A stretch of DNA of 61,622 nucleotides, the filler included, from Sphacelaria rigidula (taxonomy: Eukaryota), in the NCBI GenBank assembly GCA_964200075.2. It is 4 parts of 4 records of this genome, joined end to end, with 100 filler letters (N's around TTAATTAATTAA, not from the genome) between each part and the next. Parts side by side here need not be neighbours in the genome. Positions count along the whole stretch, not along the records: positions 30,867 to 46,196 come from CAXNAA020001794.1; 3 more parts are not named here. One strand, given 5' to 3'. Every line of letters begins with the position of its first letter. Position 1 is the stretch's first letter. The notes under the pieces are model-generated. The model worked only from the letters and a program-made list of their open reading frames with translations, ran no database searches and was not told where the DNA came from. The position numbers were made by a program, and so were the translations under genes. Of this stretch, positions 15,335 through 61,622 are shown in pieces.

Positions 15335-15434
15335 NNNNNNNNNNNNNNNNNNNNNNNNNNNNNNNNNNNNNNNNNNNNTTAATTAATTAANNNNNNNNNN
15401 NNNNNNNNNNNNNNNNNNNNNNNNNNNNNNNNNN
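15335..15434. other. Artificial scaffold spacer
   Basis: N44-TTAATTAATTAA-N44, a linker with stops in all six frames. Confidence 0.97.
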
Positions 15435-30766: not shown

Positions 30767-30866
30767 NNNNNNNNNNNNNNNNNNNNNNNNNNNNNNNNNN
30801 NNNNNNNNNNTTAATTAATTAANNNNNNNNNNNNNNNNNNNNNNNNNNNNNNNNNNNNNNNNNNNN
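30767..30866. other. Artificial scaffold spacer
   Basis: N44-TTAATTAATTAA-N44. Confidence 0.97.
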
Positions 30867-35496: not shown

Positions 35497-37519
35497 CTGC
35501 ACTGCGCTACTGTCATAACTGTACTCTGTACTATCCTACAATCTGCGTAGTCCAACGTCTAGAATCGCTCTTATCGTCTTGTCTTCTTCGCTGGAACCCT
35601 CAGACACAACAGCCAAAATTCATGTGTGACCTCGCCCTCTACTTCTCAATACATGAAGGGTACTCGTTGTTGAAAGGCGATTTTGCCCTTTATGCACAGC
35701 AGTACAGAACGAAGCAGCACCTGGTGGCACGCCACAAAATGAAATGCCGTCACACACTGCTCGCTGCAACGGAAAAACACGCAGCCCAAAACGAAGCTTG
35801 TCGAGCGTCGCATAGTTTGCATATCATTCTAATATCATTAATAGTATGTACAGACAGTTACTAAATACATGACCACAGTCGCCATCAGATGTAAGGCGGT
35901 ACACATACTAAAATCGCTCTCGACGCCTTGGCTTCTGCACTCGAGCCCTGACACGAAGCAGCCGCCAGCTGTGTCTTTCTTCAGTGACCTCTCCCTCTGT
36001 AATTTGGCACTTGAAAGAATATTCGCCGTTAAATGGCGAAAATGCCCTTTGTGCACAGCCGCACACAACAAAGTAGCGCCTGGTGGCACGCAACCAAACT
36101 GCATGTCGTCACAACTTGTTTGCGGCAAGCAAAAACATATGCGCACCGATTTTTTTGAACCAGCTATCTTCGACCTCGAAAGACGCTAAACACTGTTTTC
36201 GTGAATTTGAGAGTATAGCGCTGATTGAGAGTGGATTTTGTCATTCGCGTCAACTGGTCACTATTTCATTCCGTGTGTGCTTTTCTTTACTCGCGTGTGC
36301 TTTTAGCTACACGTAGATATCCTCATCAGGGATATCAAGGGCTTCGGTGGCAAGCTACTACTACAGAAAGCATATCGGGCCTTGTGGAAGGGCATTTCGG
36401 GACTCAATCGCTTTGCTTTCAAATTGACCGCTTCTCACTCCCAATCGTATGCTCTACTCTCCATCTCACGAAAAATATTTGCTACTGATCCTCAACCCAA
36501 AAGTTCCGATCGCACAACGCTTAGATCTCGGCAACGAAGCGGGGGATTGGACTGCGGTTTCTCGCGTGCGCTTCCCACACACCCAAGCTACGTCGCCTAG
36601 TTACGTTTTCGCGCCTGCGCGTCTTACTTACTCATAAATAAACCAAATATGCTAAAATAAGGTGTTCTCCGCTCTGGGGGATTCTGATCCACTGCTGCGA
36701 CTGGACCTAAATGTGTAACCAGTTTCCCTAGATCCTGTATGTATGCGGGGGGCTGTCAAGTGCCGTGGACAGGCTTGCTTCCTGTGTCGAAAACGGAGCA
36801 ATCTCCAGTGCTAGAGCTTCCCCATTCTAAACCAATTTAATAAGTGATGAAGCATGTGTTCGTGAGGGCCTCGGCACAGGCCCGACCACCTACAGACGTG
36901 TTCATTATTTTTGCGCGTTATTTTTTACATCGCATTTTGTGTAGAGTTTTGGTCGTAAGGGTCCGCATTCCTACCCATAACTGTGCTATCCTACACTCTG
37001 CTGTCGCTGTACTTGAAGAGCGATGAATGACACTGCACTCGTGAACTCTTGTCGCACACTGTGCACTGTTCTCGTAATACCGACTGTATCGTCATGTATT
37101 GCCACACGGCATTACCGTGTACTGTGGTTGTGGAGTGTACTGCACTGTATTATACCCTCGGGTACCACGGGACGACGCAGCTCTTGAAAGATGATTCACT
37201 GTCTGCATGTTCGTCGGCTTTATTATGACACCACACCCCTGCAGAAAATGATCCTCTGTGTACAGAACAATGTCGACAAATCTGTAAAACCATGACACAT
37301 ACAGCGTACACACGAATCTGAGTTTCGCGAGTCTGAGTTCTCCCGATGTGGCAAAGATTGGGGTTCCGTCAGATTCGGGATTGACTGTTATACAAGTTGG
37401 TCTAATGCCTGAGTAAGAAAAAGTAGCCCCCCGAATGACCAAAAACGACGCAGGATCAGTCATAATAGAAGGTGGGGGTAAATTCGTATTCCCCCCTACA
37501 TGGGTGACTGTACTGTTTT

Positions 37520-37790
37520 CGCACACAGGAAGGCTAACACAGGAGTTTTTTGTTTTTGTTTTTGAGCACTCCGCCTTCCTTCTGCGGTGCTTGCCTTTCT
37601 TGTTACGGGGAGAAGGGTTCAGCGGTGCCTCCATCGTCGACCATAAAGTCGAACGTTGTGTACTCACGACATAGTCGCTCTCCACTGTTGAGCATGGTGT
37701 GAGAAAATCCCAGGTCTTCCCGAGATTCGAACCCACGTCCCAACCGTCATAAGGATTCGAGGTTATTATCTGATCCACCGGGGCGACCGG
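37520..37790 (-). mobile_element. tRNA-derived SINE, head plus body
   Basis: Minus strand CCGGTCGCCCCGGTGGATCAGATAA (A-box-like)...GGTTCGAATC (B-box, 37733-37724), followed by the body shared with the other copies. Confidence 0.7.
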
Positions 37791-38957
37791 CTACTGCTGC
37801 GTCTTCCCCAATCGTGTCACGGTGCAGTTTGTTACCGTGACCACCTCTGAGCAGACGGGAGGGCCCGCGGTAGAGCAACGAAAGGTAGCTATGATCCGGT
37901 TTTCCTGCTGTACTGCCGACAGCGTCGCGTGAAAGCCACAAGACCCTTGCTGTCGGCGCTTGATGGCGTGGGTCTCGAATGCAACGACATGCGGTTGATC
38001 GTAGAGTACTCTCGTCCCTCCTCCCATGTTGTGATAATCCATGACCTCCTGACATCGGAATAATTATTACTCGTGGGAGGTTACTCGTACTGTACCGAGC
38101 TGTCCACGCGACCAGCGCGTGCTGCAGATTGCCTATGCACCACGCTAGCAACAGTTAGGTCACCAACATAGGTATCGGTTTTCTCTCCGCATGTCAAAAA
38201 GGTCTCTACAAGTAAGTGTTTGATCTCTCATACACCCCCCTCAACTGGCGTGTGGCAGGCCCTTCTGCTCGGGCGCCCCGCTGGGGGAGGTCGGCGAAAA
38301 TCAACGGCGAATAACACCCCCTAAGTTTAAGTTGGATATACCTGTTATTGCCGCAGCACCGCCCTTGCTGACATGTGTGGGACAGAGAACAGTAGTAACA
38401 GTGACGGGAACATTGCCCCCATTTTTCAACATGTTTTTCAGCGCACAGAGGCGCGTCGTGTCCGAAAGAACAGGCAGAGGGGATTTGATCTTCGCATTCG
38501 TGAGCTCGACAGGCAAGAAGAGACGATGGAATCTCTCCGCACGTCGATGTTCTGGCACATGAAAAATTTGGCACATGCTGGTATAATAACATCAATGATG
38601 CCAGTTTCTCAAGCGATTGGTAATCGCCGAGTGAGGACACACAAAGGACACGGGCGAGGAGTTTCTGCCGTGGTATTCGTTAGCAGAGCAAGCCACAACC
38701 CAAGATAGGTGAGTATTTGACCAGCTGATCCTGATTTCGGCTCGAAATATCAAACTGAGGTTTCTTTCTTCTAAAGTACAAGCCAGCTGCATTGAGCTGC
38801 AAACCAGATCCCAAACTCTTGCGTGCAATTGATAGACAAATATGAGCAAAGGGTTATGTTACACGTGACTCACTCTCGTTAGCTTGCCACGGCTTGCAGG
38901 CCTGAGAATAAGAAGTCGCGTAGAGCAGATGAAAGCTGAAGTTCTTGTGATAAGTCT

Positions 38958-39250
38958 CACGGGTGGCCACTGGGGGCTGTAACCTGGCCATTTTGGGACC
39001 TTATCCACATTTGGTAAGGTCCGCGGATTAGGTGGACAACTGAAGAGCATTCGCACAGCATGGACAGGTTCGAAACAAAGCATGTTCCAGTCTACAGGGG
39101 AGTCACCCGCCTATAGACTGGGACATGTTTTGTTCCAATCCTGTCCATGCCTTGCGAATGCTCTTCAGTTGTCTACCCAATCCGTGCACCTTACCAAATG
39201 TGGATAAGGTCCCAGAATGGCCAGGTTACAGACCCCAGGGGCCACCCGTG
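38958..39250. mobile_element. Fold-back MITE, ~293 bp
   Basis: Almost entirely palindromic; termini CACGGGTGGCC...GGCCACCCGTG shared with the 10217-10342 family. Confidence 0.9.
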
Positions 39251-39747
39251 CTACGCTAAGCCTCTCGTTTGACCGGTGGTTGCAAGTGGCGGGAGGTGGG
39301 GGGCAGCAGCTATGGTCCGCTATTCCGTCCTCCTGCCTCGCTTACAATTTGCCATAATACCAACTCATGACGGCGCGTGCCTTGGCCGGGCGCGTGCCCC
39401 ATCCAGTCAATCCGATACAAGCAATCCCACTACAACATCAGCCTGACGTACCATGCTGTGGCCAATCAAAGCGCCCGTGGAAACGTGCCTAGTTGCACGG
39501 CCGAGAATGCACAGACCAGTCCAGAGATTCCTCAAGACTGGTCCAAAAGCACACCACATACATATTTACTTTACAAACACACGTTCGACTAGAATCTTTT
39601 CACACCCGCCGGTCGTTTCTGGGGATCATCTGCAACTCCCAAAGAACTAGTTTAATGCAGGCACTGTCATTTACCATCACATTAGCCCACCCTGGATCGT
39701 TCAAGTGCAGTCTCTTTTCAGAAGGGGCGAGCTTGCATCGAGCTACA

Positions 39748-42700
39748 CCTCTCCCACACCACAGAAAACTGATACTCATTTTGAAGATGGAGTCTTTGTT
39801 GGTATGGGGGACGGGAAGGGGCGATCAACACAAAAAAATCAATGATATATAATCACATGCGCAAAGAAGATAAAACAAAACCGAACCGATACAATAATTC
39901 AGTGTCCTCATGTTCCGTGAGCTTTTCAGACGGAGTCATGGGAAATTCGAAAAATAAAAATAATCCAAAATCAACAATCTAAACTATATACCACAAGATG
40001 CAGTCTTCAGAATGCCGTGAGCATTTCCGGGAGAGCCACAGGAAATCGGAGACCTATCATTGAAACGATCATCCTACTCTGCCATAACTACATCATGAGT
40101 AAGTAGTTCACTCTTTTCCGGATGTCCGATGTGTTTTAAGCCATTGGTAGAAGAACAAGCAAGCCCGCCAAGGCATTATATCACTCCGATAACCAAGTTT
40201 ATGCTAATCACTCGTCCCAGTCAACCAGCAAAAGCCAGCAACGTATAGCCGATTTTGTCGCGGAAATGGTAGTTTCCCGCGAAAACCATAAGTTGATAAA
40301 AGAAAAAAATAGAAAGGTACGAACAAATCAACTCGTAGACGGGAGTTAATCGTCGGTATATGTTTGTTAGAGCAACGACGTGCTTGAGACGTCTGGGTGA
40401 TGATTCAGTCGTACAGCATTTCTTTTTTTTCTCACACGACGATACGAAAACAACCGACCTGTTTGTGAGGTCAGGTGTCCGTACACGTCAAAAGAAACGT
40501 AGTGAACGATACACAACCTTCGATCCTACTACGTAGTTCCGAGGCGGATCGCTGAGCACATTTCTGGACCACGACAAATACACAGGACAGAGAAGACCAA
40601 CGCAGCCCACTCCTCACAGTTTTGGCCGTTCGGACTAAAACGAGACTGGCCCAAACATAAACTGGAGTAAAAATCACAGCCGGTCGTACCGTCACGTGAC
40701 TTCGTCCAATAATCCCTGATAAAAACAAAACACCACCGACCGATTTCAGGGGCGGGTATTTGTAAGCAAAAAAAACTAGTAAAAGTGACAGAAAAAATAG
40801 TGAGTGGCAGACTCTGAGCCTGTAGGCTGTACCAACGGTCCAAGATCGAAATTGCGGAACGGACGGTTCCGGAAGAGCAATCTACCTTATCATGATACGA
40901 AATGGTCCTGTATGAGGAGACGTTTGCAACCGATTATACCACGACTTCATGACAAAGGTAACACCGCTATGTACGACGTGGCCAGTGGTGACCTCGTTGT
41001 AACTTACCAATCACCGAGTATAAATCATCGCGTCGCATCACCCGTGACCCTCCTATAAACGAGGTTGGTCACACGCGGCAGGATTCGCAGAAAAAAATAG
41101 GTCAAGTGTTCTAGACTCGGGGGTCAGGAACGTTGGAGCACTCATGGCAAATTCCCGACATAGACGCAGAAACCAAGACCAAATTCAATACAAAACCAGG
41201 GGCACGCTGGGCAACAGCGAAAACGAAATATCCGCAACATAAAATAGAGAAACAGCACGTGTTAACCGTCCTTGGAAACGGGAGCGGTTATCGTGTGTAT
41301 GAAGCAAGCAGGGTCAACAGTTTCAGCCAAGAAGGCAAAACATTTCACTCAAACCCGTGTTAATATAAAACTCAACGTGGTACGCACACAAAAGAGGGGA
41401 CACATCATTACCGATCCTGAAGGAGGAGGCGGTATGTGTGTACGGAGAGGTTGGGCAAGAGCGCAATTATTCCAGACGGGGAGGCCAGGTATATCTAGCG
41501 CTCGCTCCTAAAACTCTCGACCGAAAAGACAAATAAATAAATAAACATATTACACGAAAGACAAATGATGCGTACAACGAGAAAAAAAGATGAAGAAATA
41601 AATAACTTGGGGCGACTGTTACAGTAGGCGGAATGGTTGTGAATGTACGGCGCGGAGGACGGAGGTTCAAGGTTCTAGCCTCGGGGTCAGGAATGGAACG
41701 GTCGTCACTTGTACTTTGCCAGATGAACCCAGAATAAACCAAGAAAAGTACCTATTGAACACAAAAAACCGAACACAAAGCACGAGGCGAAAAAAGAAGA
41801 AAAGAAGAGAAGAAGAAAAACAAAGACAAAAACAAATCAAAACAATTGACGCAAAGGCAAAGAAAACTGAAACACAAAATCAGGTCCAGAGCAACAAAAA
41901 CAAAACACCAAAGATCAAATACAAAACACAACATCAAACACTTCAAGTACTGGGCTAATCAGTACGAAAAAAAGAAATGAAGGGGGGAGGATAGGGGGAA
42001 CACATGGTTTTCCAACGACACTACGTGCAGGACAAGCGACTCGAACGCGGTACACTACGCAAGGTAACTGGGGAAGCAGACTCGGATGCATCATGAGTCA
42101 TCTGCATCCCAAGCGGTGTCCGTGTTCCGTAGAACGGCTGTTTCGAGTTCGCTCTGGTCGTGTCGTTGGAGGCACCAGGATTCCCTCCGAGCGGTCGGCT
42201 CCTCGGTGTAGTAAGCATCATCTAAGCGAATCTTAAGGGGGCTCGGGTAATCAAGGAAATGGATAAAGTAGGAGTGATCAGACGCAGGATCGACCAAGTG
42301 AATTTTACCCAGCCACCACAGTGAATCCAAGGCCTTATACCAAAAATATGCCCCTTTCGGCAACCGTTTTCCGTGAAAACACTGCATGTATTGTGAACGC
42401 GAAAGAAGGCTATAGCCTGTCACAACAAACCGCGCTGAGTGTTCACGTGCCAGTTCCCGAGCGGCAGCTGCCTTGCGCATCGACCGATATCTCTTATTCA
42501 ACAGGCGGTGTTGGACGGTGTCTCCTACCCAGTACAGCAATATTTCCCGACGAAGATGACGCAAATCAACTTCACGCTCCCATGTAACACGCATGATACC
42601 CTTTCAATGTGTTTGATACATTACCGCAATCTTACCTCCACGACCACGAACCAGTTGATGTCCCGAAATCCTATCTACCTCGACGCGTTCCAGGGGTGCG

Positions 42701-45700
42701 TCCGCATCCTCGACCGTCATATGATACGGCGGAGTTTTGATCGCATACTTGGTCAACACATACTGGCTAAGCCCTACCGGCAGTTGTTTGGGCATGTCGG
42801 AGGAGTCGTGAGGGGGGATACACGGTTTGCATCGTACCATCGAGACACGATATTTCGGTTTCAAACCAGATTCATCCGTGGGAAAATCTAAATATAAAAC
42901 TTTCGCTCCCACCGGACTCTTGTCGGGTGCGGTAGCGCTTGGACCATCAGCTAAAATTTTCCAAGGACCAGTCCAATTCAAGGATAGTTTCACCTTCAAC
43001 ACTTCATTCAAATATGATGATTTCGAGCTAGCCCCTTGATTTATGGTCTTCAGATTGCTATACACCCATGCCCATTGGCCTACCTTCCACACCGGGCGGT
43101 TATGTACCACATCATCCAACATCGAGTTCGCCCTGGCCACCTTGGCCAAATTGATTCGGTTCTGTTCTCGTACCACTTCATATGCAAGACGAAGACGATG
43201 GCTAACCGACAAATGATACTCTGCAACATCACGATCTAGACTCTGATGTTCACCGGTATTTTTGCGTTCGAATACCGTTAAAGGTAACCTAGGCATGCGT
43301 CCAATGTGAATTTCATTCGGAGACAATCCCGTAGCGGCATTGACTGAATTGTTGTATTTCATTTGGACAAGGGGCACGTGCAGATCCAAGTCCATCTGTC
43401 TCTCATTTGCCACAGCAGCAAGCATCTATGCCATCGTATGGTTCACTCGTTCCGTTCCACCATTGGTGGAAGGGTGATATGAACTAGTAAAAATGCGATG
43501 GGCACCCAAAAGGTCACTGACGGCGGCTGAAAGTTTACCTAAAAAATGCAGGCCGTTGTCAGACAGTAGGCGTTTGGGCACACCCCACAGTGGGATGTAC
43601 ATGTAGACAAGAATGTTGGCGGTACCTTCCGCGGTATATCTACTGGGGGGGGCGGCGTGCATCACCGCATGTCGACTAAATGTATCCGTAAACAAAGTAT
43701 ACTTATTTTCACTATCCGTCAGGGGCAAAGGACCAAAATAGTCCCACGAAACTACTTCACCAGGCCCGTTTGGTAGTGGCATGGAAACAATCGGCCAACG
43801 AACTGTTTGACGAGAAGTGTTTCGCGCCTGACACAATAGACAACGCCGAACCCACCAACGACAACACTGATCCATACAAATCCACCGATAAAAACGTTCC
43901 AACATCTGGGAGGTCCTAATGGTGCCTAAATGAGTCGATGCCTGTGAATGGCATTCGTGTAGAACCCATGGGCGCAGGNNNNNNNNNNNNNNNNNNNNNN
44001 NNNNNNNNNNNNNNNNNNNNNNNNNNNNNNNNNNNNNNNNNNNNNNNNNNNNNNNNNNNNNNNNNNNNNNNNNNNNNNNNNNNNNNNNNNNNNNNNNNNN
44101 NNNNNNNNNNNNNNNNNNNNNNNNNNNNNNNNNNNNNNNNNNNNNNNNNNNNNNNNNNNNNNNNNNNNNNNNNNNNNNNNNNNNNNNNNNNNNNNNNNNN
44201 NNNNNNNNNNNNNNNNNNNNNNNNNNNNNNNNNNNNNNNNNNNNNNNNNNNNNNNNNNNNNNNNNNNNNNNNNNNNNNNNNNNNNNNNNNNNNNNNNNNN
44301 NNNNGGAATTCGGTTTCTGAGAATGGACATGGGCAACCTTTACATAGATAATGGATAGCTGATTTACCAGCAGGTTCTGCCTGTTGTTCCCGGGCCCAAT
44401 CGGCGTAGGAGAAGAGAGTCAAACGTTCCTTGAATACGCCATCTGTTGAAGCGTCTACTGCGTGTGGGGTCGGTTCGGGGCGGGGTTGGCACGAAGCGGT
44501 GATTTCGGAATCAAGGGTGAGCGTACCAGTTGGTGTACTCTCAGACGGAGCGTTAACGTCTACTCCTGCGTCGATTAGCGTGGAGGGTGTTGAGGTGGCG
44601 TTTGCAATATCATCAAAAAGAGAGGGGAGCACAGCCGTGGTTTCGACTATGGTTGGCAGGGGCAGCACGGTCGGGGTCGATTTTCGGGCAGCCTTGCGTC
44701 GCGGAGGCTGCGGGGGCGCAAGGAAACTATCGGGAACCGGGGTGGGGGCAGAGAGGGGGAGGTCAGGACCAGATATGGTTAATTTGGTGGCCGTTTCGGC
44801 GGTTCGCCGTCCACGAGCCCCACTCGAAATCAAATCTCGAACTTGAACTGGTAAGACGGAGTCAGCAAAGGACGGTTCTACACCTGCTGCGAAAACCATG
44901 CGCTGGGCAGTTGCACGAAAATGATCATAGCCAGCAGTATGCGTAGACAGTCCATTCCAAACTGAGTACAACGATTGAGGTTGCAAGCTGCCTAGGACTC
45001 ATGCGTGGGCTGTGGTCGTCAGCCCGCCCGTGCCTAAAGCCGGCGTTTCTCTCAGTGAAAGTGGTGTGCAGAGGCCTCTATGTTCATTCCTGCTTATGAA
45101 ATGTACAATGTCTTCGGTGGGATCGGTGATACGTCCCATGAGGGATTCATCGATAGGTTGAGCTGGTGTGGGCGAGCGTGACAGAAAGTCGGCGTTTGCC
45201 TTCTGGGGACCTGTGCGGTACTTCAGTTGAAAGTTGTAGACGACAGGGTTTCGAACCAGCGTTGGACCCTAGCGTTGTGTTCCGCCATTTTGGCAAGGCT
45301 TTCCAAAGACTTATGATCGGTATGAACCACAAACGGGGTGTCATACAAATACTGACGCAGACGACGCACGCCCCAAACAACTGCGCCGGCCTCTTGTTCC
45401 ATGACAGACCAATTCTGTTCATTCGGAAAAGTGGTGCGACTCAGATAGACAATGGGACGAACAGTAGCATCGACTTGCTCCTGTTCTAATGTGTAGCCAA
45501 ACCCAATTTTGGAAGAATCTGTGTGGAGCCGGAAAGGGCGGGAACCCTGCTCCGCGGCCGACCACTCGGGGAAGACGGTAATCGGCAGGCGCGAAAGGGT
45601 GTCAAGAAGACGGCGGACGGTTCTTTCCATTTCCAATGTAAACACAAATTTCACCCCTTTTTTGAGGAGGGTGGTGAGGAGGTTTAGCGTTTGGGCAAGG

Positions 45701-46196
45701 TTTGGCAAGTACTGTCTGTAGTAGCTTACACCTCCCGACAAGGAACGCAGTTGAGAAATGTCCCGTGGCATGGGCATATCGGAGAGTGCGGCGACCTTGT
45801 CGAGTTTTGGGCTACGACCTTCGGGGTGGATGCAATGACCCAAGAACTCAATCTTCGTGGCGCCAATGCGGGATTTGGAGGGGGCGAGTTTCAAGTTGTG
45901 TTGTTCAAACCGATTAAAGAATGATGCAAACTGTTCGACGTGTTCAGCCGATGTGGGTTCGTTGCACACCGCATCATCAAGGTACATATGGCATTTGGGC
46001 AATCCATCAGTTACACGGAACATTACACGTTGAAACGCACCTGGAGCTCCGGCGGCACCTTGTGGTGTAACCAGTCACTCGTGCAAACCTGATGGCGTGC
46101 AAAACGCTGTCAGTTCAATGGAATTTGGATCCATCACGAGCTGGTGGTCGCCGGACTGCATGTCAAAGTTCGAAAATACTTTACCCCCGCCAAGAG
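39748..46196 (-). mobile_element. Ty3/gypsy element, family 1 copy B (RT-RH-IN-chromo; 5' end cut by contig end)
   Basis: RT MYLDDA and IEFLGH; RNaseH HTDSS, EAGAV, TDHK; IN WDYFGP, SDNG, GGTER; WTGPW; chromodomain-like and PWWP/Tudor-like C-terminus ending 42091; several in-frame stops; sized gap 43979-44304; candidate PPT at 39748-39760. Confidence 0.9.
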
Positions 46197-46296
46197 NNNN
46201 NNNNNNNNNNNNNNNNNNNNNNNNNNNNNNNNNNNNNNNNTTAATTAATTAANNNNNNNNNNNNNNNNNNNNNNNNNNNNNNNNNNNNNNNNNNNN
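46197..46296. other. Artificial scaffold spacer
   Basis: N44-TTAATTAATTAA-N44. Confidence 0.97.
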
Positions 46297-46371
46297 GGGT
46301 CTTCCGTGCGAGAGAGAAATGCCACTTCAGCCCCATATTTTGTATGAACCCCGAAATTTGAAATCGGCTGT

Positions 46372-46552
46372 TGATTGTAGTTATTTATATATATATGCTC
46401 TCGGCACATCGATGAACTACACGAAACAACGGGCAATGCGCAGAGACCCCCACCATGGATGTAGGGTCCGAACCGCGGTAATACACGGGTTACTGACCCG
46501 CACGACTCTGGACTACAGCCACACTTGATCACCCCGTACCCCCCAACGTACA
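46372..46552 (+). repeat. Putative 5' LTR of gypsy family 2
   Basis: Homology with 57215 starts exactly at TGATTG; ends GTACA followed by TGACTCCCCG (PBS-like, 9/10 match to the complement of a tRNA-Asp-type 3' end); alternative end GATCA at 46531. Confidence 0.6.
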
Positions 46553-49500
46553 TGACTCCCCGCGCGCAAATTCTCCGCGCACATTATGGCCCGACCCGTT
46601 GATACATGGACAACTGGCGAGACTAATCGGAACTCATGAAGTTTTCTTGATGCGAGACATGAACCCAGTCCTTATTTTCTTTACTTTTACGCATGATCGG
46701 TAACAAAACATGTTCCCCAGTCTTTGTTCACCCCTGAACAGACAGGTGACCGCCTCTGATGAAGAAACACGATGCTCGCTCACTTCATCAACAACAACCC
46801 TGAAATGCCAATCAATATTATCACCTAACATGACAACATTATGTATCAACAACCCAGTCAACTGACTATAGATACCGACAGACCCCCCCCCCAAAACAAA
46901 ATGGGGAAAGGCTCATGTCCCGCACAAAATAAATCGTCATGCAGGATCGTTTAACCGCAAGCGACCATCAACCAGCGTTTCATTTTTTTTTCTTTTCTCT
47001 TCATTTTCTTTTACACATTTGTTCTTCAACCCCACACTTTTTCTTTCTTTTTGTCTTTCCTCTTTTTTCCCCCCGCATTTTGTTGTACGTCGATTCACGC
47101 CCAACATAAACTCAAGGTATACTTCACCTGCTGGGTAAGCACCGACTGGGATCCAAGTGTACGAATATTAGTTTGTATTGTTTTCTTCTTTCAGGCGAAG
47201 TTTTAAGTTCATTTGATTTTAGCAGCTCACTAAAATAGCGAGTAACTACCACTTGGTTTATTATCGGTCCGTACCTATTCTTGTTTTTTTTACCAGCGTC
47301 TCCTACGCCGTTCGGTACACCCTCGACATAGATTCAGGAAACAACCCCACAGAGCATGAGTAGCATACACACTCATGCACTGAAAAACCATACTATACGC
47401 ACATCCTCACGCTATTCCCCACAGGTAAGCATGAACATGTACGCGCATGCCACTGCGATCGGACAAGTGGGGGGAGCCTACCAGCACGCACCCCCCCAGG
47501 CTCAACCGGTCCAAATACCGGCCCCGGCAGCCCAACCACCTCCCCCGCCTGCCGGTGGTGGTTGGTATATCGCCCCCGTAGGACAACATGGTGCCCCTGC
47601 TCCTTACCCCCCTCCCCAGCAACAACCAGCACAGGGAGTAACCCATCCACAACAAGGAAATGTAGTGCCGCTCCCACCCCCACCACGCCCTTTCCCACAA
47701 GCTGCTAACCAGCACCCCCAGGGGTACGCGCAACCACCAACCGTACCAGTAACCATAGCCAACCAGGAAGGCGGGTCGTCGGCACAACAACAGACTGTCC
47801 AGCCGGGCGCCAACGCCGCCTCACAGGGGAGCCCAGGTATGACATACAACCATACTATCTCCAGACGCACGCAGTAAAGCCATCCGCCGCATACACAAAA
47901 GGAAATGCTTCACAGCCGGTTTTTGTCGGACTAGATGGGGGCGAAGTAGAAACATCACACACTACATGCGCAGTTATATTCGCTGACAAGCTAGCTAAGA
48001 CTCTCAGAAACATGGACCAAGGGATATGGGCCCTCCTTAATGACACCAACACTTAAACAAGAGTTTATCGTCCACTTCCGGACGGGATATCTTCTTCCCA
48101 TAAAGAGCTACTTAGCGAACTACTGGCTGATTATCTAGGCACTCACGATGAACTACAAAGCGGTAGAGCTGTGGAAGTCCCCACTATCCATGGGTCATTC
48201 ATAACGCTACAACCCGACGAAGTCTCAGTAACAGAATGGCTCCGTAAACTAGTACGGGAATCCGCCCTCCAACCTGGAGCAACGGAGGTCGCGCGACTCG
48301 CCTTAGATAAGATAACGATCAAACAAGGGGAAGCTTGGTCGGCCGCCGCACGCCGCCTAGTGTTGCTCTACAGAGCCTTCACTGTAGACTCTGAAATGCC
48401 TCATGCATCCGAAGAGATATATTTTTGGAGATATATTTCCGAGACCCACCTCAATGATCTAATTGAACGAGCTCTCAGACTCCTCATCCCCTCTGCCCTG
48501 GACCAGTCTAGCCTGCAATCGATCATGCACCACCAGGTGATGAGAGTGTCACTAGAACTACGACCCTTGCGGGTAGAAGCACAAAATCAATTGGGAGCGA
48601 GAATGACGAACAGAGGGAATATAGCTGAGAGAATTTTCTTCGACTTTGTGAAGCTGTTGGGAGACAAAAGCACTGCGTACCTAGACTCAACACCCACCAC
48701 CAAGCCTACCTCACGCAATACGTCCCGCGCAGCGTCCATCGCTGAACTCCGCACCCTCATGGGACAGTCAAAAGAAGATCTGGAAAAGGCAATCCTTGCC
48801 AGACACAACGCGATAGCAGCATGCAACATGGCAGCGTGAACATACGACCAAACCCGACCATCTGCTCTAATTCCCAACAAAGTATATGGCAATCGCCAAG
48901 CCTATCGTGTCATCACTGCGCACCTACATGCCAGACAGCAAATCCTACCTTGAGTTGTCACAACACATTAGCAGCCTTTTCCAGCCAACCCGCCTCAATA
49001 CCGGGTCAGCACGGTGTACCGTTCTCTGGGAAACCCCAACAATTCAATAACAACTCGCACGCAAGTACATACCAGGGAGGTTGCCCACCAACTACAACCC
49101 AGGGCCGGGTGGGCACTGCTACGATCAGCAACCCCCCTTCACCAGAGTCTCCACGTACGGAGATAATCGATATCTTGCGCAACGCACGAATTTGCTTTCG
49201 ACATGCTTTTGGGGCAGAGTGCAGACGCCCACGGTGCCCCTACATACACGAGGTAAATATCTTACCGAGGGGCTTTTACTCTCAGACATACCGATCACAA
49301 CCAGGAGGCGCGAAACGCACACACCAAGCTGACGAATCAGAACAACCCAACAAAAACGCCGCACCCTGGTAACCCCTGAGCAACTTGGAATGATTTCCGC
49401 TATTACCGGACTCGAATTTGAGAGCGAACACGAAGACGGAGCAGAGCACACCACCTGAAGGTGCGCCCCGGGTAGTACTTCACTCCCGGGGAACCTCGAC

Positions 49501-52500
49501 GATGTGCCGTCACCGAAACCCTCCAGTAATACGAATCCAGCAGGAAGCGAGTCTAGCCACGCACCAACGGTCGAAGAAAGAGAAGAAGTTGCGGCGGCCG
49601 CCGAACATATTGCCACCAACAAGAACCACAAAGCACAAGTTTGGGTACAGGCAAAAATCTGGTATCCCCCTAAGTTGAGCATGCGACTTCCTGTCTCCGT
49701 CCTGTTGGACACGGGTGCTAGTGGGGGAAACTACGTGTCCGGTACTTTCTGGCAGTCGATTTGTAAGTGGGGAGGAATACCGGATGGCCAACTAGATAAG
49801 AGAGGTGCAGGCACGTTGAGGGGAGCAAACCCGGAGGAAAACAAGGTACCACCGATGTGAATTCTAGGCTCCTCTACAATACCAGTCATCTTTCCCCCGG
49901 AAGATAAAGTACGCAACATCGCAGCACGTGTAGTCAAGAGCTTTCCATACGCACTGGTACTGGGCGCTGCATTCTTCCGCAAACACTCAAGCGTCCTCTC
50001 ATTTGACAAACATCAAGGATTCCGCCCCACACCCGACGCACCATGGATACCGCTCGACACCCATAGCTCGGTACTCTCCCCTAATACTGAACCATCAAGT
50101 GCGACCCCGTTGGCTGCGAAAGACATTCAAGCATCAAATGGTTCGGAGAAAATGTCTGACGTAGAAAAGGCCACCATAGAAGCGTAGAGTGTCAAAACAA
50201 ATGGCACACCATTGGAATCAGCCCCGTTATCGGCAGGAGGTGTACAAGCGTCGAATGATCCCAAAGTTACACCTGACGTAGCCGAGGTATTATGGGACAC
50301 GTTCTGTGCTGTCATACCCGGGGAAGAAGTTGAAGAACCAGAGCTGTACACCCCGTCTACACTAGACACCTTCAACCCCTCCATCGCAACCATCACAGAC
50401 AGGATAGTAAGTAACACATTCATGGGTAAGGTAGTTTGGGAAGACGACGGTACTCTGCAGTGGGCATTCTCCCTACCCTCGCCGCTGCAACTACCAGGTT
50501 TTGTCAGCACAGCAGTAGAGGGACGCACCAAGGGTCCCCTCTCTCAAGTACGGCAACTGGTACTGATACTACCTACCGAGGATTACGATTTAGAGAAAGG
50601 TGCGGTGCTAGGTGTAGCGAGAGGTATTCAGTGGTGGGAGCCAGGTACACCCCTAGTATGCAAGACAGTGAACAGGAGCCCCAACCAGAGCCTCATCGAG
50701 GCAAGAAAACAGATAGCACAGATAGTGGCGATCAATACCGATGACGAGGAACGCTTCCACGCGCTATTCCTCCCATCTAACCCCGAAAACAGCGAGGACG
50801 ACACATCACACTATACACAAACATGGACGTCACATGAAGTCAACGACGAAGGAAAAGAGACGGACGAGAGCACAATCATGTCCAATCTCAATGACGCCAA
50901 CCTCGGACAGCTCAGCACCCCTGATATACAAAAGCTTTTATCACTGCTAGACGAGTTCCGACATCAAGGAATCTTCCCAGCAGACCCGAAAAAAGTCCGC
51001 CCCTGCGACCAAGGTAAGATTCGTATTCCGTTGAGAGATGAACGATGTAAACCTGTGGCAACAAAGCAGCGACGTTTTTCACCCGCCGAAACTGAAGCAA
51101 TACAAGCCGAAGTAGAAAAATTGTACCAGCGATGTATTATTCGTCGGTCAGAGTCGGAATGGACAGCAAGATTACTCGCGGTACCAAAAAAAGACGGCAC
51201 GCTACGCCTGTGCCATGACTACAGGGAACTGAATGATCTCACGGAAACAGACAGCGGGGGTCTGGGGGACATCGAGAGCATGCACGACAGGTTAGGTTAA
51301 GTGGTAACAAATGTTTTCCCACATTAGATCTCGCCTCAGGGTACTTTCAACTCGAAGTCGAGGAGAATGGCAAACACAAAACAGCCTTCAGAGACGCCCT
51401 CGGCCAACTTTGGGAATACAACAGGTGTAGCTTTGGATTGAAAAACCTCCCATCCGGCTTCACCAGAGGTATATCCAAAACCCTGGGCTCCCTTATAGGT
51501 AAAGGAGTTCAGGTATAGTTGGACGAGATCCTCATCTTCAGCAAAATATTCTCTGAACACCTATACCTAATACGAAACGTTCTCTCGGCTCTGTTGGAAG
51601 CGAAATACTCTGTTCACTTTGCAAAGTCGTCATGGTGCATGCCTAACCAGGAATTCCTGGGGATGGTGATCGACCGCGAGGGAAGACGTCCAGCCTCATC
51701 CAAAATCGAGGCATTCAGTAAACTCTCACCCCCGAACACGGTAGAAGAGCTACGGGCTTCCCTCCGCATGACCGGTTAAATGCGATCATTCGTCAACCAT
51801 TACAGCATTATCGCGGCCTCCCTGACCGACGTCCTACGTGATCCCCGCTTTCAGTCAAAACGCGCTAGAAAACTAAAATCCCTTGGGACGACGGAAAGCA
51901 ACAATCTTTCGACAAGCTGAAAGAGGCACTCATATCCCCACCGGTTCTAGCATACCCCTCGTGGGAACACCCCTTCACCCTACACACCGATGCGAGTATT
52001 TTGGGGGCTGACGCGACACTGTGCCAAACGATAGATGGCGTCGAGAAGGTAGTAGCATACGCTAGTAATCGGTTCTCGCGTACAGACTCACTGAGGGCAG
52101 CAACGCATCGAGAATGCATGGCCGTATTGTGGGCGACGGGACACTTCAGACCATATATTACGGGTAGGAGATCTGACCTCGTTACAGATTGCAGCGCACT
52201 ACTCTGGTTATTCATAAGTAGAGATCTCGAACCCAAATTACATCGATGCGCCTTACGATTGATGGAGTACGACATGACGCTACGCTGGAGAGCAGGCACA
52301 TGCCACCAACTCCCCGATGCTTTATCCCGCCTATTTGGCAACACCGCAGAAGGTACAGATGTTGACGACGCTTTTCCGGATGACTCCACCCTAAAATCCG
52401 ACCGGTGCACGAAGGGCCCGCAAGGACCGGTGTTGGACGGAGTCCCCTTAAGCCAGCTAGGGGAAGAGAAATTGATACTGGTGGGATCTGCTTCCATCAC

Positions 52501-55500
52501 AGCGTTGTGGTCGATGACATCCCCGATAGACAGCAAGGACTCCCCTACAAATGCATTCACACAGCAAGAACCTGGCCAGATATCTGACACACAAACGCAT
52601 GAAGCGGAAGTAAGTGGAACGATGACTCAGTTGTCGGAAATGCCATTTTCCCGAGAAAAGGTGGCAGCGCTGCATGATGACGTCCAAAATGAACCACGCA
52701 GATCGAATAGAGCCCGCACCCGTTCTGTCAGACTCAAGGACTTCATAACCGACGAACCCATTTCCGTACCGCAAAGCATTCCTCCAACCCACACAGACTC
52801 CCAGCGGACACTGTCGAGCAGCCAGGAATCGAGTCCGGTTATCGTCGAGGAACACAAGAACATCCACTCCCCATAGTCACGACTCAGTCATCAACAGAGC
52901 GATCAATACTCTATCTGATTTACCCAGACTAATCGAGAACCAGAAAAACGACCTTCACCTGCCAGATCCGAGCTTCTCTACTCAACGAGACGGAAAAGGC
53001 ATCAGGAATTACATCAGATAGCTACATCAGAGACGACCATGGCCTGTTGTGGCACACCGGAAATAAGGATAGACCAACGCTAGCCATTCCACGACAGCTT
53101 GTTCCTGACCTAATAGCACTTGTACACGCAGACTACGGACACACGGGAGTAGCGCACACCACGATCCTGCTACGAAATCATTTTCACTGGAACAGTATGA
53201 ACAAAGACTGCCGTGACTACGTTCTCGTGCGGCTGCAGACGCAGGGAAAGAGCACAAACTCAACAGGTGGCAATGCCACCGAGCCGACTTCTACTCCACT
53301 GGGATGTGCTAGAGATCGACTTTCAGGATATGCATTGTACATCCGCATCAGGCAATCGATACATACTACTGATCGTCGACCGAGCTTCGAAGTTCCTCTT
53401 TGCATATCCCACACCTACGAAGGAGTCAGCACCGGTAGCCCGCATCCTGCTGAACCTGTGTCTAACATTCGGCATACCCAGATCTATCCGCAGCGACAAA
53501 GGGGGAGAGTTTGCAGCAAGTGTAGTAAGGGATCTATGCAGATAGCTCAGGGTATCTCTGGACTACAGACCCGCAGATCACCCGAGAGGTCAGGGGGCAG
53601 TTGAAAGGGCGGGGGCTTGGATGCATGACACACTCTCCGAACTATGCAAATCATGGCCTGACAGGTGAGACGAGTACGTGGATCCAGCATGCTGGATCAA
53701 ACGTACACTTCCAGACCCATCCGTCCCTTCCAATATGTCCCCGTTTCAAATTCTTTTCGGCCGAGATCCAAGAACCACTCTAGACATCCTAGTACCACAG
53801 ATGGACGGTGATGACTCCGCGACAGGCCTGGACAACTTCGTTGAACAGAGGAAACGAAAACTAGACCAGGTTAAGCGGGTCCTGGAAACAAGACAGCAGA
53901 ACAAACAAAAAGAAAGACAGAGGCTTAACACAAAAATCATAGGCACTCCCCAGGAGCGTCGGCAAAATAGGAGATCTGATGCTTGTTCGAGAACCAAAAA
54001 GTACGTTGCAGAGGGATGGTCAGCACCAAAAACTAACACACGAAAAATGGACGGGACCGTGGGAGGTAACAGCAACCCCTATTCCGCGAATCAGTGTAGA
54101 GGTATCGATGCAAGGAAGGAAACTACGCCACAGGACAGTCTCCACCACGGCTCTTAAACCGTTTCATCAACGTCGACCTGAACCGAGACACGCAATGGAA
54201 GATGAGTTCGCCCAGCTAGCTTGGGGACCGGACCTAGGACACGCTGACATCTCTACAGTAGCCTCACCTCTGTACACACTAACGAACAGGAAGACTACAA
54301 CTACGGCACCTACACCAACGGTGTGGGAGTATAAAGGCAGGTACAGGATGGACAGGAACCCGACTGGCTGACGGAAGCGGAAGTGTTGGACAGCTTTTCC
54401 CCCCTCCAACTAGATGTGTTTCATGCCATATGGGACATGTATCACCCGTCGGTGAGACCCTACCCACAATGTAACAGGGACGAGTCCACGCAGACAAAAG
54501 ACAGGGACGAGGCGCTGATCATATACCCGATGGGAACACAGGTGAGACGTTCTGCAGACGACGGAGTAGGCGAAGGAGTAGGGACAGGCGAGGTATATGA
54601 TTACCTTGATCCATACTGGCGAGTGAAATACCCGAACGGTGAGTGGTTGGAGTTCAGCAGAGGGGAAATGCGTAAATTAACATTTTCGACGTAAGTGATA
54701 CCCAACACGCCCCGTCACTGAATCTACGCCATCAGACGCGTATCCTCCCGAGTGAGGGCCCCACAGGTGCAAAACCCAACGCAGGGTTGAACAAGAGGAA
54801 ACGAGCACTCAAGCTCGGATACGCTACCGGAGATGAGAAAATTTCGGGTCCCATGGGTGCAGCCGAGAATTGGGTGCAGCCGAAAGGGGTCTCTATCCCG
54901 TATTCCCAACCACAGAGGTGTGAGTGGAGTTTCCTCCTTCCATTTCACACGGCCTTCGATCGATTACGCTCGTTTCTACTCAATAAGTGGTACCTGGTCA
55001 ACCACTTGGCGAATGTATTGAGGCGGGATGTTACAGGGTGGATAATGACCGTGTATAGTAGACTATGGAGCAATTGGATCATGGCTACACCTCCTTCAGT
55101 CTAATGGTGACTTGGTGGGAAATATATAGTGTGACTTTGCCCCCCACTGGGTCACAAGTGAAAGCACACGAAAGCAACCAATTCTGAAGGCAAACTGATA
55201 ATCGTCTCCCGACTATTGTATTGCACTTCACATCTGCTGACCGCTGCTAACAACACCCATCATCCGCCAAGAATCGATCCACATGCTGAGCAAGGTGCTT
55301 GCACACATCTTCACTTCTGCATTTGGACTGAAACAGGCAAGATCCAACCGGTATTCTGTGGTTCCTACCGTAGGTCTGACCGTGTCGGATTGAAAGTGTC
55401 ATGGTAATGAAGTGGCCAGCGAAGCCTGGTGTGAAACGTGTCCCCGACTGGTAGAGGTCCCTGCGTACCTAACACTGGGACATCTTTGCGTCCGCGACGT

Positions 55501-57214
55501 GGTGCCCGATTCGAGAGAGCAGGAGAGACAAACGCACGCACTCAGCGTGAGGTTCTCAGGATGAAATGTTGACCGCAGCCAGGCCAGCAGTGAAGTGGAT
55601 TTGTCTTTTTTTTGTTACGTATTGTCTCTGCGTTACAACCTCTCAATCGTCATGGCGTGCAAGCATTTGACCCCGAGTCAGAGGAACAATTAGCTGCCTC
55701 ATCCTGCCTTTCATATGCGGTAGTCTCCATTACGCTGTAATACATCAAAACTCTCGACGGCAAACACGGCGCGAGGTGCGCTGGAAAGGTGCGTGAGCAA
55801 TCGTGGTTGCACGCCATGCTCGCAGTTTTTGAGACATCAAAGCTTTGCCGAACGAGGGTGGAACAAAATATCACATGGGTGCAGCTGCATGTGCACCCAT
55901 TTGATTATTGTAGTATACTACTGTTTCGCCAAAGACGCAGAAGTCATTGCAGTGTGAGGTAAACAGATTAACCCAGCATGAAGCTGCTGTACCATCAGTG
56001 ATAAATGGTAACAGCGGTCGGCCTCGCAGCAGCATAAGGTACAACCCATCACCAGAGGTGTTCGCAGGTGCCCGCCTGAGCAACTTGCCCAGTAGGGTCC
56101 GCAGTTTTTTTTGTGTGCCAGAGCGGATCGTTTTTTTCGCGGGATTCTCCCGCAGACGGTCTGTAAAACACTCAATACATGCATGCGACTTGATACCACG
56201 AAGCAGTGCGCTTCGCCTCAGCAAACACGGGCAAGTCAAACAGGTGGGGTGCAAATATAGATTACACGCATAATACAGCGCAGCATGATGAGAGCTGTAC
56301 GAGCACTGTAGAGTTTGGGATATTGTACCGAGGGCCTGAAAACTAGAACACTACCCAGGCATATGTAAAGCAGCGGGTAGCTAGGTTGGACTGAACACAA
56401 GGAATGCATGTTTTTCTTTCTTTTGTGCGAGGCAATGAAATATGTTTTCCCGGGTAGCGGCTTAGATCAACTTTCGCATGAAACTACACTAAGGCAGACC
56501 TGACGTGTAATCTATGCATGATATTTATATGATACACACTTGGGATTTTCATCAAAATGAAATAATATTCCACATCACGAAACACATCTCACATGCAATG
56601 CTCGAAATAACTACAGCCGCTACCACTGGAAATTGTTTTTGTCATAGACCGCAGGAAAAAAGAAAAAACGCGACATCCGTCACTGTTTGTCCACACGCGA
56701 CACCCACGCCGTACTTTTTTTCTGGTCACTCATGAAGCGTAAGTCCTTCTCTTGATGCGACTAAATATTGATCATGCATGTGAGCACCCACATCGCTCAT
56801 ACCACGTGACGTGATGGACATAACGATCGACAATCCTCGCACCCAAGGCAAGTCGTGTTCTCCCGGGCAGGATCAATGGTGAAGACACAGACTGACCCGA
56901 GAGCCCTAAAGTAGACTACTTTGGGAGCCGTTGACTCCAAAAATGAATTGCTTGCCAACGATGATGGTTGTTCTACAGTTACCCCGTTGAAACACTCGAC
57001 GATCATATCAGTGTAACATTTTATGCTGTCACTACAATCGAAGTGCGATCATCACCGCATATCTACATGTACATTACCTTGGCACCGAGGTAGCTCGTAC
57101 ACTTCTACACTCACAACAACATTATTGACGATACATGGATCGGTCTCCCGTCAGTTCACAAGGGTACGAAGTAATTAACTACTCCCGGGGGTCAGCATTG
57201 TTTATGGGAGAGTA

Positions 57215-57391
57215 TGATTGTAGTTATATATAAATGCTCTCGGCACATCGATGAACTACAAGAAACAACGGGCAATGCGCAGAGACCCCCACCATGGATG
57301 TAGGGTCCGAACCGCGGTAATACACGGGTTACTGACCCGCACGACTCTGGACTACAGCCACACTTGATCACCCCGTACCCCCTGACGTACA
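57215..57391 (+). repeat. Putative shared central LTR
   Basis: Nearly identical to 46372-46552; PPT-like tract upstream, PBS-like site and leader downstream. Confidence 0.6.
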
Positions 57392-58445
57392 TGACTCCCC
57401 ACGCGCAAATTCTCCGCGCACAATATTACCCGAACCGTTGATACATGGACAACTGGCGAGACTAATCGGAACTCATGAACTTTTTTTTTGTGCGAGACAT
57501 GAGCCCAGTCCTTTTTTTTTATAACTTTTACGCATGATCGGTAACAAAACGTGTTCCCCAGTCTTTGTTCACCCCTGAAGGGACAGGTGACCACCTCTGA
57601 TGAAGAAACACGATGCTCAACCTTTCCATCAACAACAACCCTGAAATGCCGATCAATATTATCACCTAACATGACAACATTATGTATCAACAACCCAGTC
57701 AACTGACTATAGATACAGACAGACCACCCCCCCCCCCAAAAAAAAAAGGGGGGGAAAGGCTCATGTCCCGCACAAAATATATCGTCATCCAGGATCGTTT
57801 AACCGCAGGCGATCATCAACCAGCGTTTCATTTTTTCTTCTCTTCTCTTCTTTTGTTTTTACACATTGGTTCTTCAGCCCCACATTTTTTTTCTTTCTTT
57901 CTTTCTGTCTTCTTTTTTCCCCGCATTGTGTTGTACGTCGATTCACGCCCAACATAAACTCGAGGTATACTTCACCTGCTGGGTAAGCACCGACGGGGAT
58001 CCAAGTGTTACTAATATTAGTTTGTATTATCAATATTCATTTTTTCTTTCAGGCGAAGTTTTTGGTTCATTTGATTTTAGCAGCTCAATAAAATAGCGAG
58101 TAACTACCACTTGGTTTATTATCGGTCCGTACTTATTCTTGTTTTTTTTTACCGGCATCTCCTACGCCGTTCGGTACACCCTCGACATAGATTCAAGTAA
58201 CAACCCCACAGAGCATGCGTAGCATACACACTCATGCACTGAAACACCGTACGCACATCCTCACGCTACTCCCCACAGGTAAGCATGAACATGTACGCGC
58301 ATGCCGCTGCGATCGGACAAGTGGGGGGAGCCTACCAGCACGCACCCCCCCAGGCTCAACCGGTCCAAATACCGGCCCCGGCAGCCCAACCCCCCCCCCC
58401 CGCCTGCCGGTGGTGGTTGGTATATCGCCCCCGTAGGACAACATG

Positions 58446-58510
58446 CTCCGTCTCGAAAGGGATGCGTGGTCAATGGTCAAATGACTAAGGCAAGCAACAA
58501 ATGAGTACGC
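58446..58510 (+). mobile_element. 5'-truncated LINE insertion with 15-16 bp TSD
   Basis: CCGTAGGACAACATG duplicated at 58431-58445 and 58511-58525; empty site in copy 1 at ~47576-47590. Confidence 0.88.
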
Positions 58511-61500: not shown

Positions 61501-61622
61501 ATGCAAGATAGTGAACAGGAGCCCCGACCAGAGCCTCATCGAGGCAAGAAAATAGATAGCACAGATAGTGGCGGTCAATATCGATGACGAGGAACGCTGA
61601 GTCATCCTACGATAGGGGGGGG

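Follow-up and report, generated by a model that had tools for sequence, protein, structure and literature searches.

Integrases with a fused chromodomain are the textbook example of transposons that select their insertion sites by reading chromatin, and the question raised by a locus in the brown alga Sphacelaria rigidula is whether an integrase may carry a second, different reader-type domain behind the first, and what such an arrangement would do. The locus lies in a stretch of DNA of 61,622 nucleotides (the window), which is composed of four parts of four records of assembly GCA_964200075.2 joined end to end. On the minus strand, positions 42094-42690 encode the end of the pol gene of a Ty3/Gypsy retrotransposon, consisting of a chromodomain, a basic helix and a second beta-barrel domain. 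An initial annotation of the sequence had described this end as a chromo-like domain followed by a PWWP/Tudor-like one and had proposed that a bivalent reader of histone marks directs integration. The region is best explained as the 3' end of pol in a Ty3/Gypsy (Metaviridae) retrotransposon family of stramenopile algae, a range that rests on one named protein, from S. rigidula, together with the literature. Both C-terminal domains are, according to predicted models, real, conserved and confidently folded Royal-family modules, and the second is Tudor-like and very probably not PWWP, being most similar to the Tudor domains of the Polycomb-like proteins PHF1, PHF19 and MTF2. By analogy with other integrases the module would probably act as a chromatin tether of the integration complex that biases target choice, and this is the interpretation favoured here with some reserve. 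The two copies of the family in the window, and the parts of the better preserved one, are as follows.

42091-46196, minus strand: copy B, a degenerate, 5'-truncated Ty3/Gypsy pol remnant with partial reverse transcriptase, RNase H, integrase, chromodomain and Tudor-like domain
45226-46074, minus strand: C-terminal part of the reverse transcriptase, and RNase H (Pfam)
43429-43977, minus strand: integrase zinc-binding domain and catalytic core (Pfam)
42691-43425, minus strand: integrase C-terminal region, including NWTGPW (42961-42978), a GPW motif of the GPY/F type (translation; homologues keep the motif)
42520-42690, minus strand: chromodomain of three strands and a helix, with a group-II-like cage (central Trp position only)
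42604-42606, minus strand: in-frame TGA at the chromodomain Trp position (homologues and contigs read Trp)
42370-42519, minus strand: linker to the barrel, in which a short strand and then a short helix follow a long basic alpha-helix (NKRYRSMRKAAAARELAREH at 42439-42498)
42154-42369, minus strand: Tudor-like five-stranded SH3-type barrel (LPKGAYFWYK / WWLGKI / YFIHFLD / LKIRL / SWCLQRH)
42091-42153, minus strand: acidic, poorly conserved tail, in which the predicted local distance difference test score (pLDDT) falls to 56, and the pol stop TGA at 42091-42093
20164-24881, minus strand: copy A, older and more degenerate, with about 73% nucleotide identity to copy B (self-blastn, tblastn and alignment of the two copies)

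The motifs quoted in the initial annotation were all recovered on the minus strand (VEVDRISGHQ at 42655-42684, TWEREVDL at 42562-42585, LPKGAYFWYKALDSLWWLGKI at 42301-42363 and SYFIHFLD at 42250-42273), with the correction that 66 residues, not about 55, separate TWEREVDL from the second block. Translation from 43425 to 42091 gives the C-terminal 444 residues of pol, broken by the in-frame TGA at 42604-42606. Even with the threshold relaxed to E<=10, Pfam detected nothing in the two open reading frames (ORFs) of this stretch, nor in a read-through translation that has X in place of the stop. Structure prediction with AlphaFold2 was applied to P0002, the closest named protein, of 324 residues, from S. 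rigidula (91% identity to the terminal ORF), in which the chromodomain is intact, and to the 170-residue terminal ORF itself. The model of P0002, built on 150 aligned sequences, has a mean pLDDT of 75.3 and a predicted template modelling score (pTM) of 0.65, with residues 121-310 at 85-98 and a poor first 110 residues, where the alignment is thin; the model of the ORF (149 sequences) has a mean pLDDT of 88.6 and a pTM of 0.80. Both C-terminal domains were modelled at a pLDDT above 90. In the ORF model the linker between them forms a helix (residues 34-54), a strand (64-66) and a second helix (69-75), at a pLDDT of 93-97. The linker helix is basic, with a median net charge of +5 over 32 residues among 102 family members, and the linker columns Y39, R43, A47, R49, E50, L51 and R53 are invariant in seven sequences.

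The first domain, as modelled, has a three-stranded antiparallel sheet against a C-terminal helix and superposes on the chromodomains of HP1, Chp1 and Polycomb. Its sequence lies below the curated threshold of the Pfam Chromo profile (PF00385), P0002 scoring 18.1 bits against a cut-off of 25.1 and 10 of 150 members giving a match (best E 1.7e-4). The second domain is modelled as a five-stranded SH3-like beta-barrel of about 55-60 residues, for which Foldseek placed the PHF1/PHF19 Tudor domains closest (29-32% identity over 47-51 columns, root mean square deviation (rmsd) 1.8-2.5 A). When the family profile was compared with all sequences in the PDB, the PHF19 Tudor domain supplied the top three of five matches (E 0.069-0.12), followed by the chromodomains of Swi6 and MPP8. 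Sub-threshold Pfam matches across the same 150 members were spread over Chromo (10), Agenet (10, best E 1.8e-3), an SH3 family (16), PWWP (2, best E 0.12) and Tudor_2 (1, E 0.14), and leads from the ESM Atlas, all scoring below 0.9, were to Spin/Ssty, Agenet, PTM/DIR17 Tudor and KIF2A-like domains. A Royal-family SH3-like barrel behind a genuine chromodomain fold is thus what AlphaFold2 and Foldseek returned, and of the original description the chromodomain and the Tudor-like barrel stand, whilst the PWWP label very probably does not.

In the representative structure set no solved chain covers both domains, so that the tandem arrangement is without structural precedent in the set searched. The known tandem-reader architectures (SAWADEE, the tandem Tudor domain of UHRF1, Spindlin) were considered and rejected, since they align to one domain only or with a high rmsd, and the viral structure library BFVD yielded only generic small barrels of phage proteins and nothing related to retroelements. 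Comparison by hhalign of the Tudor-like profile with the chromodomain and with the integrase C-terminal region gave probabilities below 1%, which speaks against a recent internal duplication as the origin of the barrel. A prediction of the complex between the chromodomain part and the linker-plus-Tudor part, run without the family alignments, scored 0.15, short of the 0.34 mark.

The extension is a conserved feature of the family and not a product of chance. A word-index search of longer proteins returned six relatives of the 170-residue ORF; two of these are full reverse transcriptase-RNase H-integrase proteins of 1618 and 1660 residues with 48% and 39% identity, and over the seven sequences, which span 39-91% identity, 44 of the 170 columns are invariant. 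An exhaustive phmmer search over 1.84 billion cluster representatives matched 306 clusters at E<=1e-3, 105 at <=1e-10 and 7 at <=1e-30. The older copy in the window also retains remains of the extension, located by tblastn at 20164-20428 and visible in a three-frame reading, so that the claim that this segment belongs to the family and not to a single copy is borne out by homologues, clusters and copy A alike. Among 156 family proteins the Tudor-like profile was found in 139, the chromo profile in 72 and both in 59; 71 are fragments too short to include the chromo part, 13 lack the end and nine have the barrel with at least 125 upstream residues and no chromodomain match. Many database proteins (P0012, P0015, P0020, P0022, P0023, P0028, P0030 and P0031 among others) begin exactly at a conserved Met in the linker helix (position 42 of the terminal ORF); such starts are most likely gene-caller products of decayed copies and not a true internal start.

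It had also been noted that a TGA replaces a Trp in the chromodomain of copy B, and this was confirmed: the position is W in all six longer homologues and in 60 of 75 family sequences. Logan contigs from four public runs were aligned to 42000-43500, and at base 42604 the other base, giving a Trp codon, was present in 25, 16, 4 and 2 contigs of runs X1, X3, X6 and X7 among the contigs listed, which make up essentially all of the depth there; among the aligned contigs the TGA is therefore private to this copy. The family is very highly repeated in these data, with more than 2200 contigs on this interval in each of two runs.

Selection on the extension was assessed from Nei-Gojobori counts over window residues 301-424 (123 codons), 69 codons of which form the barrel. 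A metagenome scan provided five loci, comprising L001, L002 and L003 with long open frames, L004, which is nearly identical to L003, and the decayed L005. For the three intact pairs among the first three loci the proportion of non-synonymous differences (pN) over the extension was 0.24-0.28 and that of synonymous differences (pS) 0.64-0.72, giving a ratio of non-synonymous to synonymous rates (dN/dS) of 0.11-0.25, which is a rough figure because synonymous sites are near or at saturation. The barrel alone gave a pN of 0.23-0.27 and a pS of 0.67-0.79, and the integrase C-terminal region of intact relatives a dN/dS of 0.06-0.075. One synonymous and no non-synonymous change separates L003 from L004, and pairs that include the dead copy of the window have a pN/pS of about 0.5. 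The extension is thus under purifying selection that is less tight than that on the integrase. The lack of an SH3-like barrel and the lack of purifying selection were the two outcomes that the initial annotation regarded as fatal to its proposal, and neither has been encountered, since a beta-barrel fold is predicted and the extension is under such selection.

Intact members of the family encode one polyprotein, in which NADAR, reverse transcriptase, RNase H, integrase, chromodomain, basic helix and Tudor-like barrel follow each other. P0172, which falls in the same 90% cluster as P0007, opens with an N-terminal NADAR domain (E 1.7e-47) followed by reverse transcriptase, RNase H and integrase; L002 has a single uninterrupted frame of 2154 codons running from NADAR (E 7.1e-47) to the Tudor-like end, and L001 has NADAR at E 5e-53 as well as a frame of 1636 codons. 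NADAR was not found in the window, where copy B stops at 46196 and the match of copy A starts past the NADAR region. As in chromoviruses such as MAGGY and Tf1 the chromodomain sits on the C-terminus of a Ty3/Gypsy integrase, but chromoviruses have one reader domain each, whereas there are two reader-type folds here. The Tudor domains of PHF1, PHF19 and MTF2 are readers of H3K36me3, and the barrel shares with them (PDB 4bd3, 6wau, 4hcz, 5xfr) the pattern G-x-x-x-x-W/C-x...-D-G-L-[WY]-[WY]-L-G-K-I...-F-x-D. It differs from them by a loop of 16 residues and by additional elements at both ends, namely a strand and helix at the N-terminus and the conserved strand SWCLQxH at the C-terminus, and whilst those proteins are accessory to Polycomb repressive complex 2, the barrel of this family sits in a transposon polyprotein.

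The described architecture fits the NADAR/chromodomain Gypsy lineage published in 2025 for Ectocarpus. The text of that survey of transposable elements, in which domains were called by InterProScan or HHpred, distinguishes four Gypsy lineages that are neither chromoviruses nor Chronos elements; three have integrase-fused chromodomains, one of them with NADAR (Gypsy-12_Ec32), and the fourth, Gypsy-10_Ec32, has a C-terminal Tudor domain and is called the first transposable element with such a domain (PMC12477816). Compared by description, the Gypsy-12_Ec32 lineage shares with the relatives P0172, L001 and L002 a YbiA-type N-terminal NADAR and an integrase C-terminal chromodomain, but the family studied here adds a Tudor-like domain to an arrangement for which the text of the survey mentions a chromodomain only. 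A comparison of the same kind with Gypsy-10_Ec32 reveals a Tudor-type reader on a Gypsy integrase of a brown alga in both cases, the difference being that in that separate lineage the Tudor domain stands in place of a chromodomain, whereas here a single protein carries both, the Tudor-like barrel behind the chromodomain. The searchable text of the literature yielded no account of an integrase with a chromodomain and a Tudor domain in tandem.

The same Tudor-like domain also ends three proteins that are not pol, P0054 (612 aa), P0055 (828 aa) and P0173. The domain of P0054 and P0055 has 58-61% identity to that of L002 and 45-46% to that of the window, and is preceded by an N-terminal part that resembles a coiled coil and by a long stretch rich in Ser and Arg. 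This family has no Pfam match, no chromodomain and no integrase, and a search for relatives of the N-terminal part of P0055 returned P0055 alone. The Tudor-like domain could have come from this family, or the family could be a domesticated copy or a further ORF of an element.

An important consideration in assigning a function to the two domains is whether they possess the aromatic cages by which methyl-lysine is read. In PHF19 the cage that reads H3K36me3 is formed by W50, Y56, F74 and Y80 (PMC7105160), and Y56 and its equivalents have been described as validated by mutation (PMC12132310). These positions were mapped to family columns through a HMMER alignment, and the chromodomain was mapped against MPP8 and HP1. 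Two of the four PHF19 positions are kept, the equivalent of Y56 being W in 118 of 126 sequences and that of F74 being F in 90 of 119, and in the chromodomain one of the three aromatics of the Y-W-Y cage is kept, namely the central Trp (W in 60 of 75). Several observations weigh against the favoured interpretation of the module as a chromatin tether: the position of W50 is occupied by A, G or S, none of 136 sequences being aromatic there; the Y80 equivalent falls at about the Pro of a PGP turn (Pro in 102 of 119); the first cage position of the chromodomain (F59 of MPP8, Y24 of HP1) is aliphatic, with aromatics in 2 of 33; the third (Y83, Y48) is Leu or Ile, with aromatics in 5 of 77; and the copy in the window is itself non-functional. 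By alignment, then, neither domain has a complete canonical cage (one of three positions in the chromodomain, two of four in the Tudor-like domain), contrary to the expectation of an aromatic-cage reader, and the ligand is for this reason probably not read in the textbook manner of HP1 or PHF1. A canonical methyl-lysine mode is unlikely, as the sequences stand, for either domain, and the proposed bivalent reader of histone marks is partly supported, being weakened by the incomplete cages. Other conserved aromatics of the barrel (W88, W96, Y112, Y132 and W143) might build a different pocket.

The chromodomain, with only the central Trp of its cage, resembles the group II chromodomains of plants, which lack the first and third aromatics and which are reported only from plants (PMC3605345). 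The text of the Ectocarpus survey states that H3K9 and H3K27 methylation are absent in Ectocarpus and that repeats are marked by H3K79me2 and H4K20me3 (PMC12477816), and non-canonical cages fit a host group reported to be without these two methylations.

There are precedents for a part of an integrase, or a partner of it, directing insertion to particular chromatin. The chromodomains of chromovirus integrases are believed to tether integration to chromatin directly, and among retroviruses the integrase of human immunodeficiency virus type 1 (HIV-1) is tethered indirectly through the PWWP domain of LEDGF/p75 and that of murine leukaemia virus (MLV) through BET proteins, so that a Royal-family reader biases integration sites. 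In the LEDGF and BET cases the reader is a separate host protein to which the integrase binds, whereas the integrase of this family itself carries two reader-type folds by covalent fusion. In the mechanism proposed, the chromodomain, the basic helix and the Tudor-like barrel would act jointly as a tether, the tether would dock the complex of integrase and cDNA on nucleosomal chromatin, and docking would bias the insertion sites of new copies. The ligand may be a different mark or a host chromatin protein; it may also be a histone surface plus nucleosomal DNA, the DNA being contacted by the basic helix. A more specific proposal, which is put forward tentatively and which we consider more doubtful than the tether itself, is that the chromodomain, helix and barrel form a composite nucleosome-docking unit that evolved in stramenopile Gypsy elements to recognise non-canonical repressive chromatin in hosts without H3K9 and H3K27 methylation, the two half-cages giving bipartite or novel binding; chromatin that is rich in repeats and marked by H4K20me3 or H3K79me2 would be the candidate ligand.

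The alternative that best survives, although it is unlikely, is that the barrel is an additional nucleic-acid-binding or intasome-architecture domain which, with the basic helix, grips target or element DNA and not histones. A functional parallel would be the C-terminal domain of retroviral integrases, which is of the SH3 type and both binds DNA and links subunits. However, the element already owns an integrase C-terminal region with the GPW motif, no similarity of the barrel to that region or to the chromodomain emerged from the hhalign comparison (probability below 1%), and sequence and structure, taken together, place the barrel closest to Tudor domains that read histones (about 30% identity). 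Rather less probable is a role as adaptor. The module would then bind a host or element-encoded protein in place of a histone mark, and would either tether the integrase to a chromatin-bound factor, as happens for the integrase of Ty5 via Sir4 and for that of MLV via BET proteins, or disturb host silencing. Chromo and Tudor folds also mediate contacts between proteins, and the chromodomains of cpSRP43, which bind the tails of Alb3 and cpSRP54, are among the structural matches; the non-canonical cages of both domains point in the same direction, and a portable module for interactions is suggested by the recurrence of the Tudor-like domain at the end of P0054 and P0055, where it follows a Ser/Arg-rich region. 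On the other hand, no partner is known or predicted, and the evidence does not separate an adaptor from histone reading.

It is highly improbable that the second domain is a PWWP domain proper that reads H3K36 methylation together with nucleosomal DNA. Pfam PWWP (PF00855) matches 2 of 150 members, with a best E of 0.12, Foldseek ranks the PHF1/PHF19 Tudor domains first with 29-32% identity as against 17-20%, and in the profile search of PDB sequences the PHF19 Tudor domain is the sole reader match to the barrel. Furthermore, the motif is not P-W-W-P, and the helices that follow the barrel show poor conservation and are modelled with lower confidence. That the extension is non-functional read-through resembling a reader by chance, for which the absence of a Pfam match in the window ORFs and the dead state of the window copy might be cited, is scarcely credible in the face of 306 clusters, 44 of 170 invariant columns, an intact frame of 2154 codons, a dN well below dS and a pLDDT above 90.

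A second and different reader-type fold behind a chromodomain, in an abundant family that is conserved over at least 306 sequence clusters, broadens the known repertoire of integrases, and the results suggest that published domain maps of these elements may omit a domain undetected by standard Pfam scans. Should the three parts indeed form a composite docking unit, this would be the first integrase known with two covalently fused Royal-family readers, and the module in the non-pol proteins P0054 and P0055 would indicate where the domain came from, or that it has a second use. Because its hosts are reportedly, in the text of the Ectocarpus survey, without H3K9 and H3K27 methylation and its pockets are non-canonical, the module is a ready probe of how "safe" or repeat-rich chromatin is marked in brown algae (PMC12477816).

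Copy B itself is dead, a fossil member of a family in which the interest resides. The full-length relatives P0172 and P0006 match it over 42106-46194 at 52-56% identity (tblastn), and its 5' half is missing because a run of N begins at 46197. In-frame stops are found at 44999-45001 (TGA), 43426-43428 (TAG) and 42604-42606 (TGA), together with at least one change of frame near 45226-45268. Pfam matches to this copy are RVT_1 (E 1.7e-11, profile positions 118-203 only), RT_RNaseH (E 4.9e-32), RT_RNaseH_2 (E 9.3e-19), Integrase_H2C2 (E 9.6e-10) and rve (E 2.9e-6), the last at 27.9 bits, under the curated cut-off of 32.6 bits. Within the integrase, directly upstream of the zinc-binding and core match, are 326 masked N bases (43979-44304), and the reading frame differs between the two sides of this run. 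A search for long terminal repeats of copy B found no direct repeats of 60 bases or more within 36000-56000. Directly 3' of the pol stop, at 41740-42010, the coding strand is pyrimidine-rich where a polypurine tract would be expected; the plus strand of this interval contains an A-rich low-complexity stretch as well as a purine run at about 41966-41995. About half of the contig depth carries a 3-base insertion behind 42087.

Copy A has accumulated frameshifts, stops and an internal deletion that has taken the first half of the Tudor-like domain, as seen in a three-frame translation, and reads ...ARELAREHSA up to the deletion and then ...IHVVDLAVDNSCFIRFLNDPGPRRLRM. A repeat of about 4.4 kb occurs twice in the window, at 46372-50755 and 57215-61598 (92-95% identity), beginning just past the N run that ends copy B. 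The repeat lacks a long ORF, does not match the Gypsy proteins used for comparison, and may be another element into or beside which copy B was truncated. A Gypsy-type pol remnant on the plus strand at 51016-54019 has 23-30% identity to P0172 and P0006; it differs from the family of copies A and B, and the window is therefore a nest of retroelements. Each of the intervals 15335-15434, 30767-30866 and 46197-46296 consists of a pair of 44-base N runs with 12 bases between them. The differences of copy B from the majority of family contigs over 42000-43500 are mostly transitions; of about 107 in run X1, 48 have A or T in the window against G or C in the contigs, and 25 the reverse. Two of the three stops of copy B are of this G/C to A/T type: the TAG, which falls at a Gln position, and the TGA at the chromodomain Trp. 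The decay of copy B looks like that of an old copy subject to C-to-T-type change.

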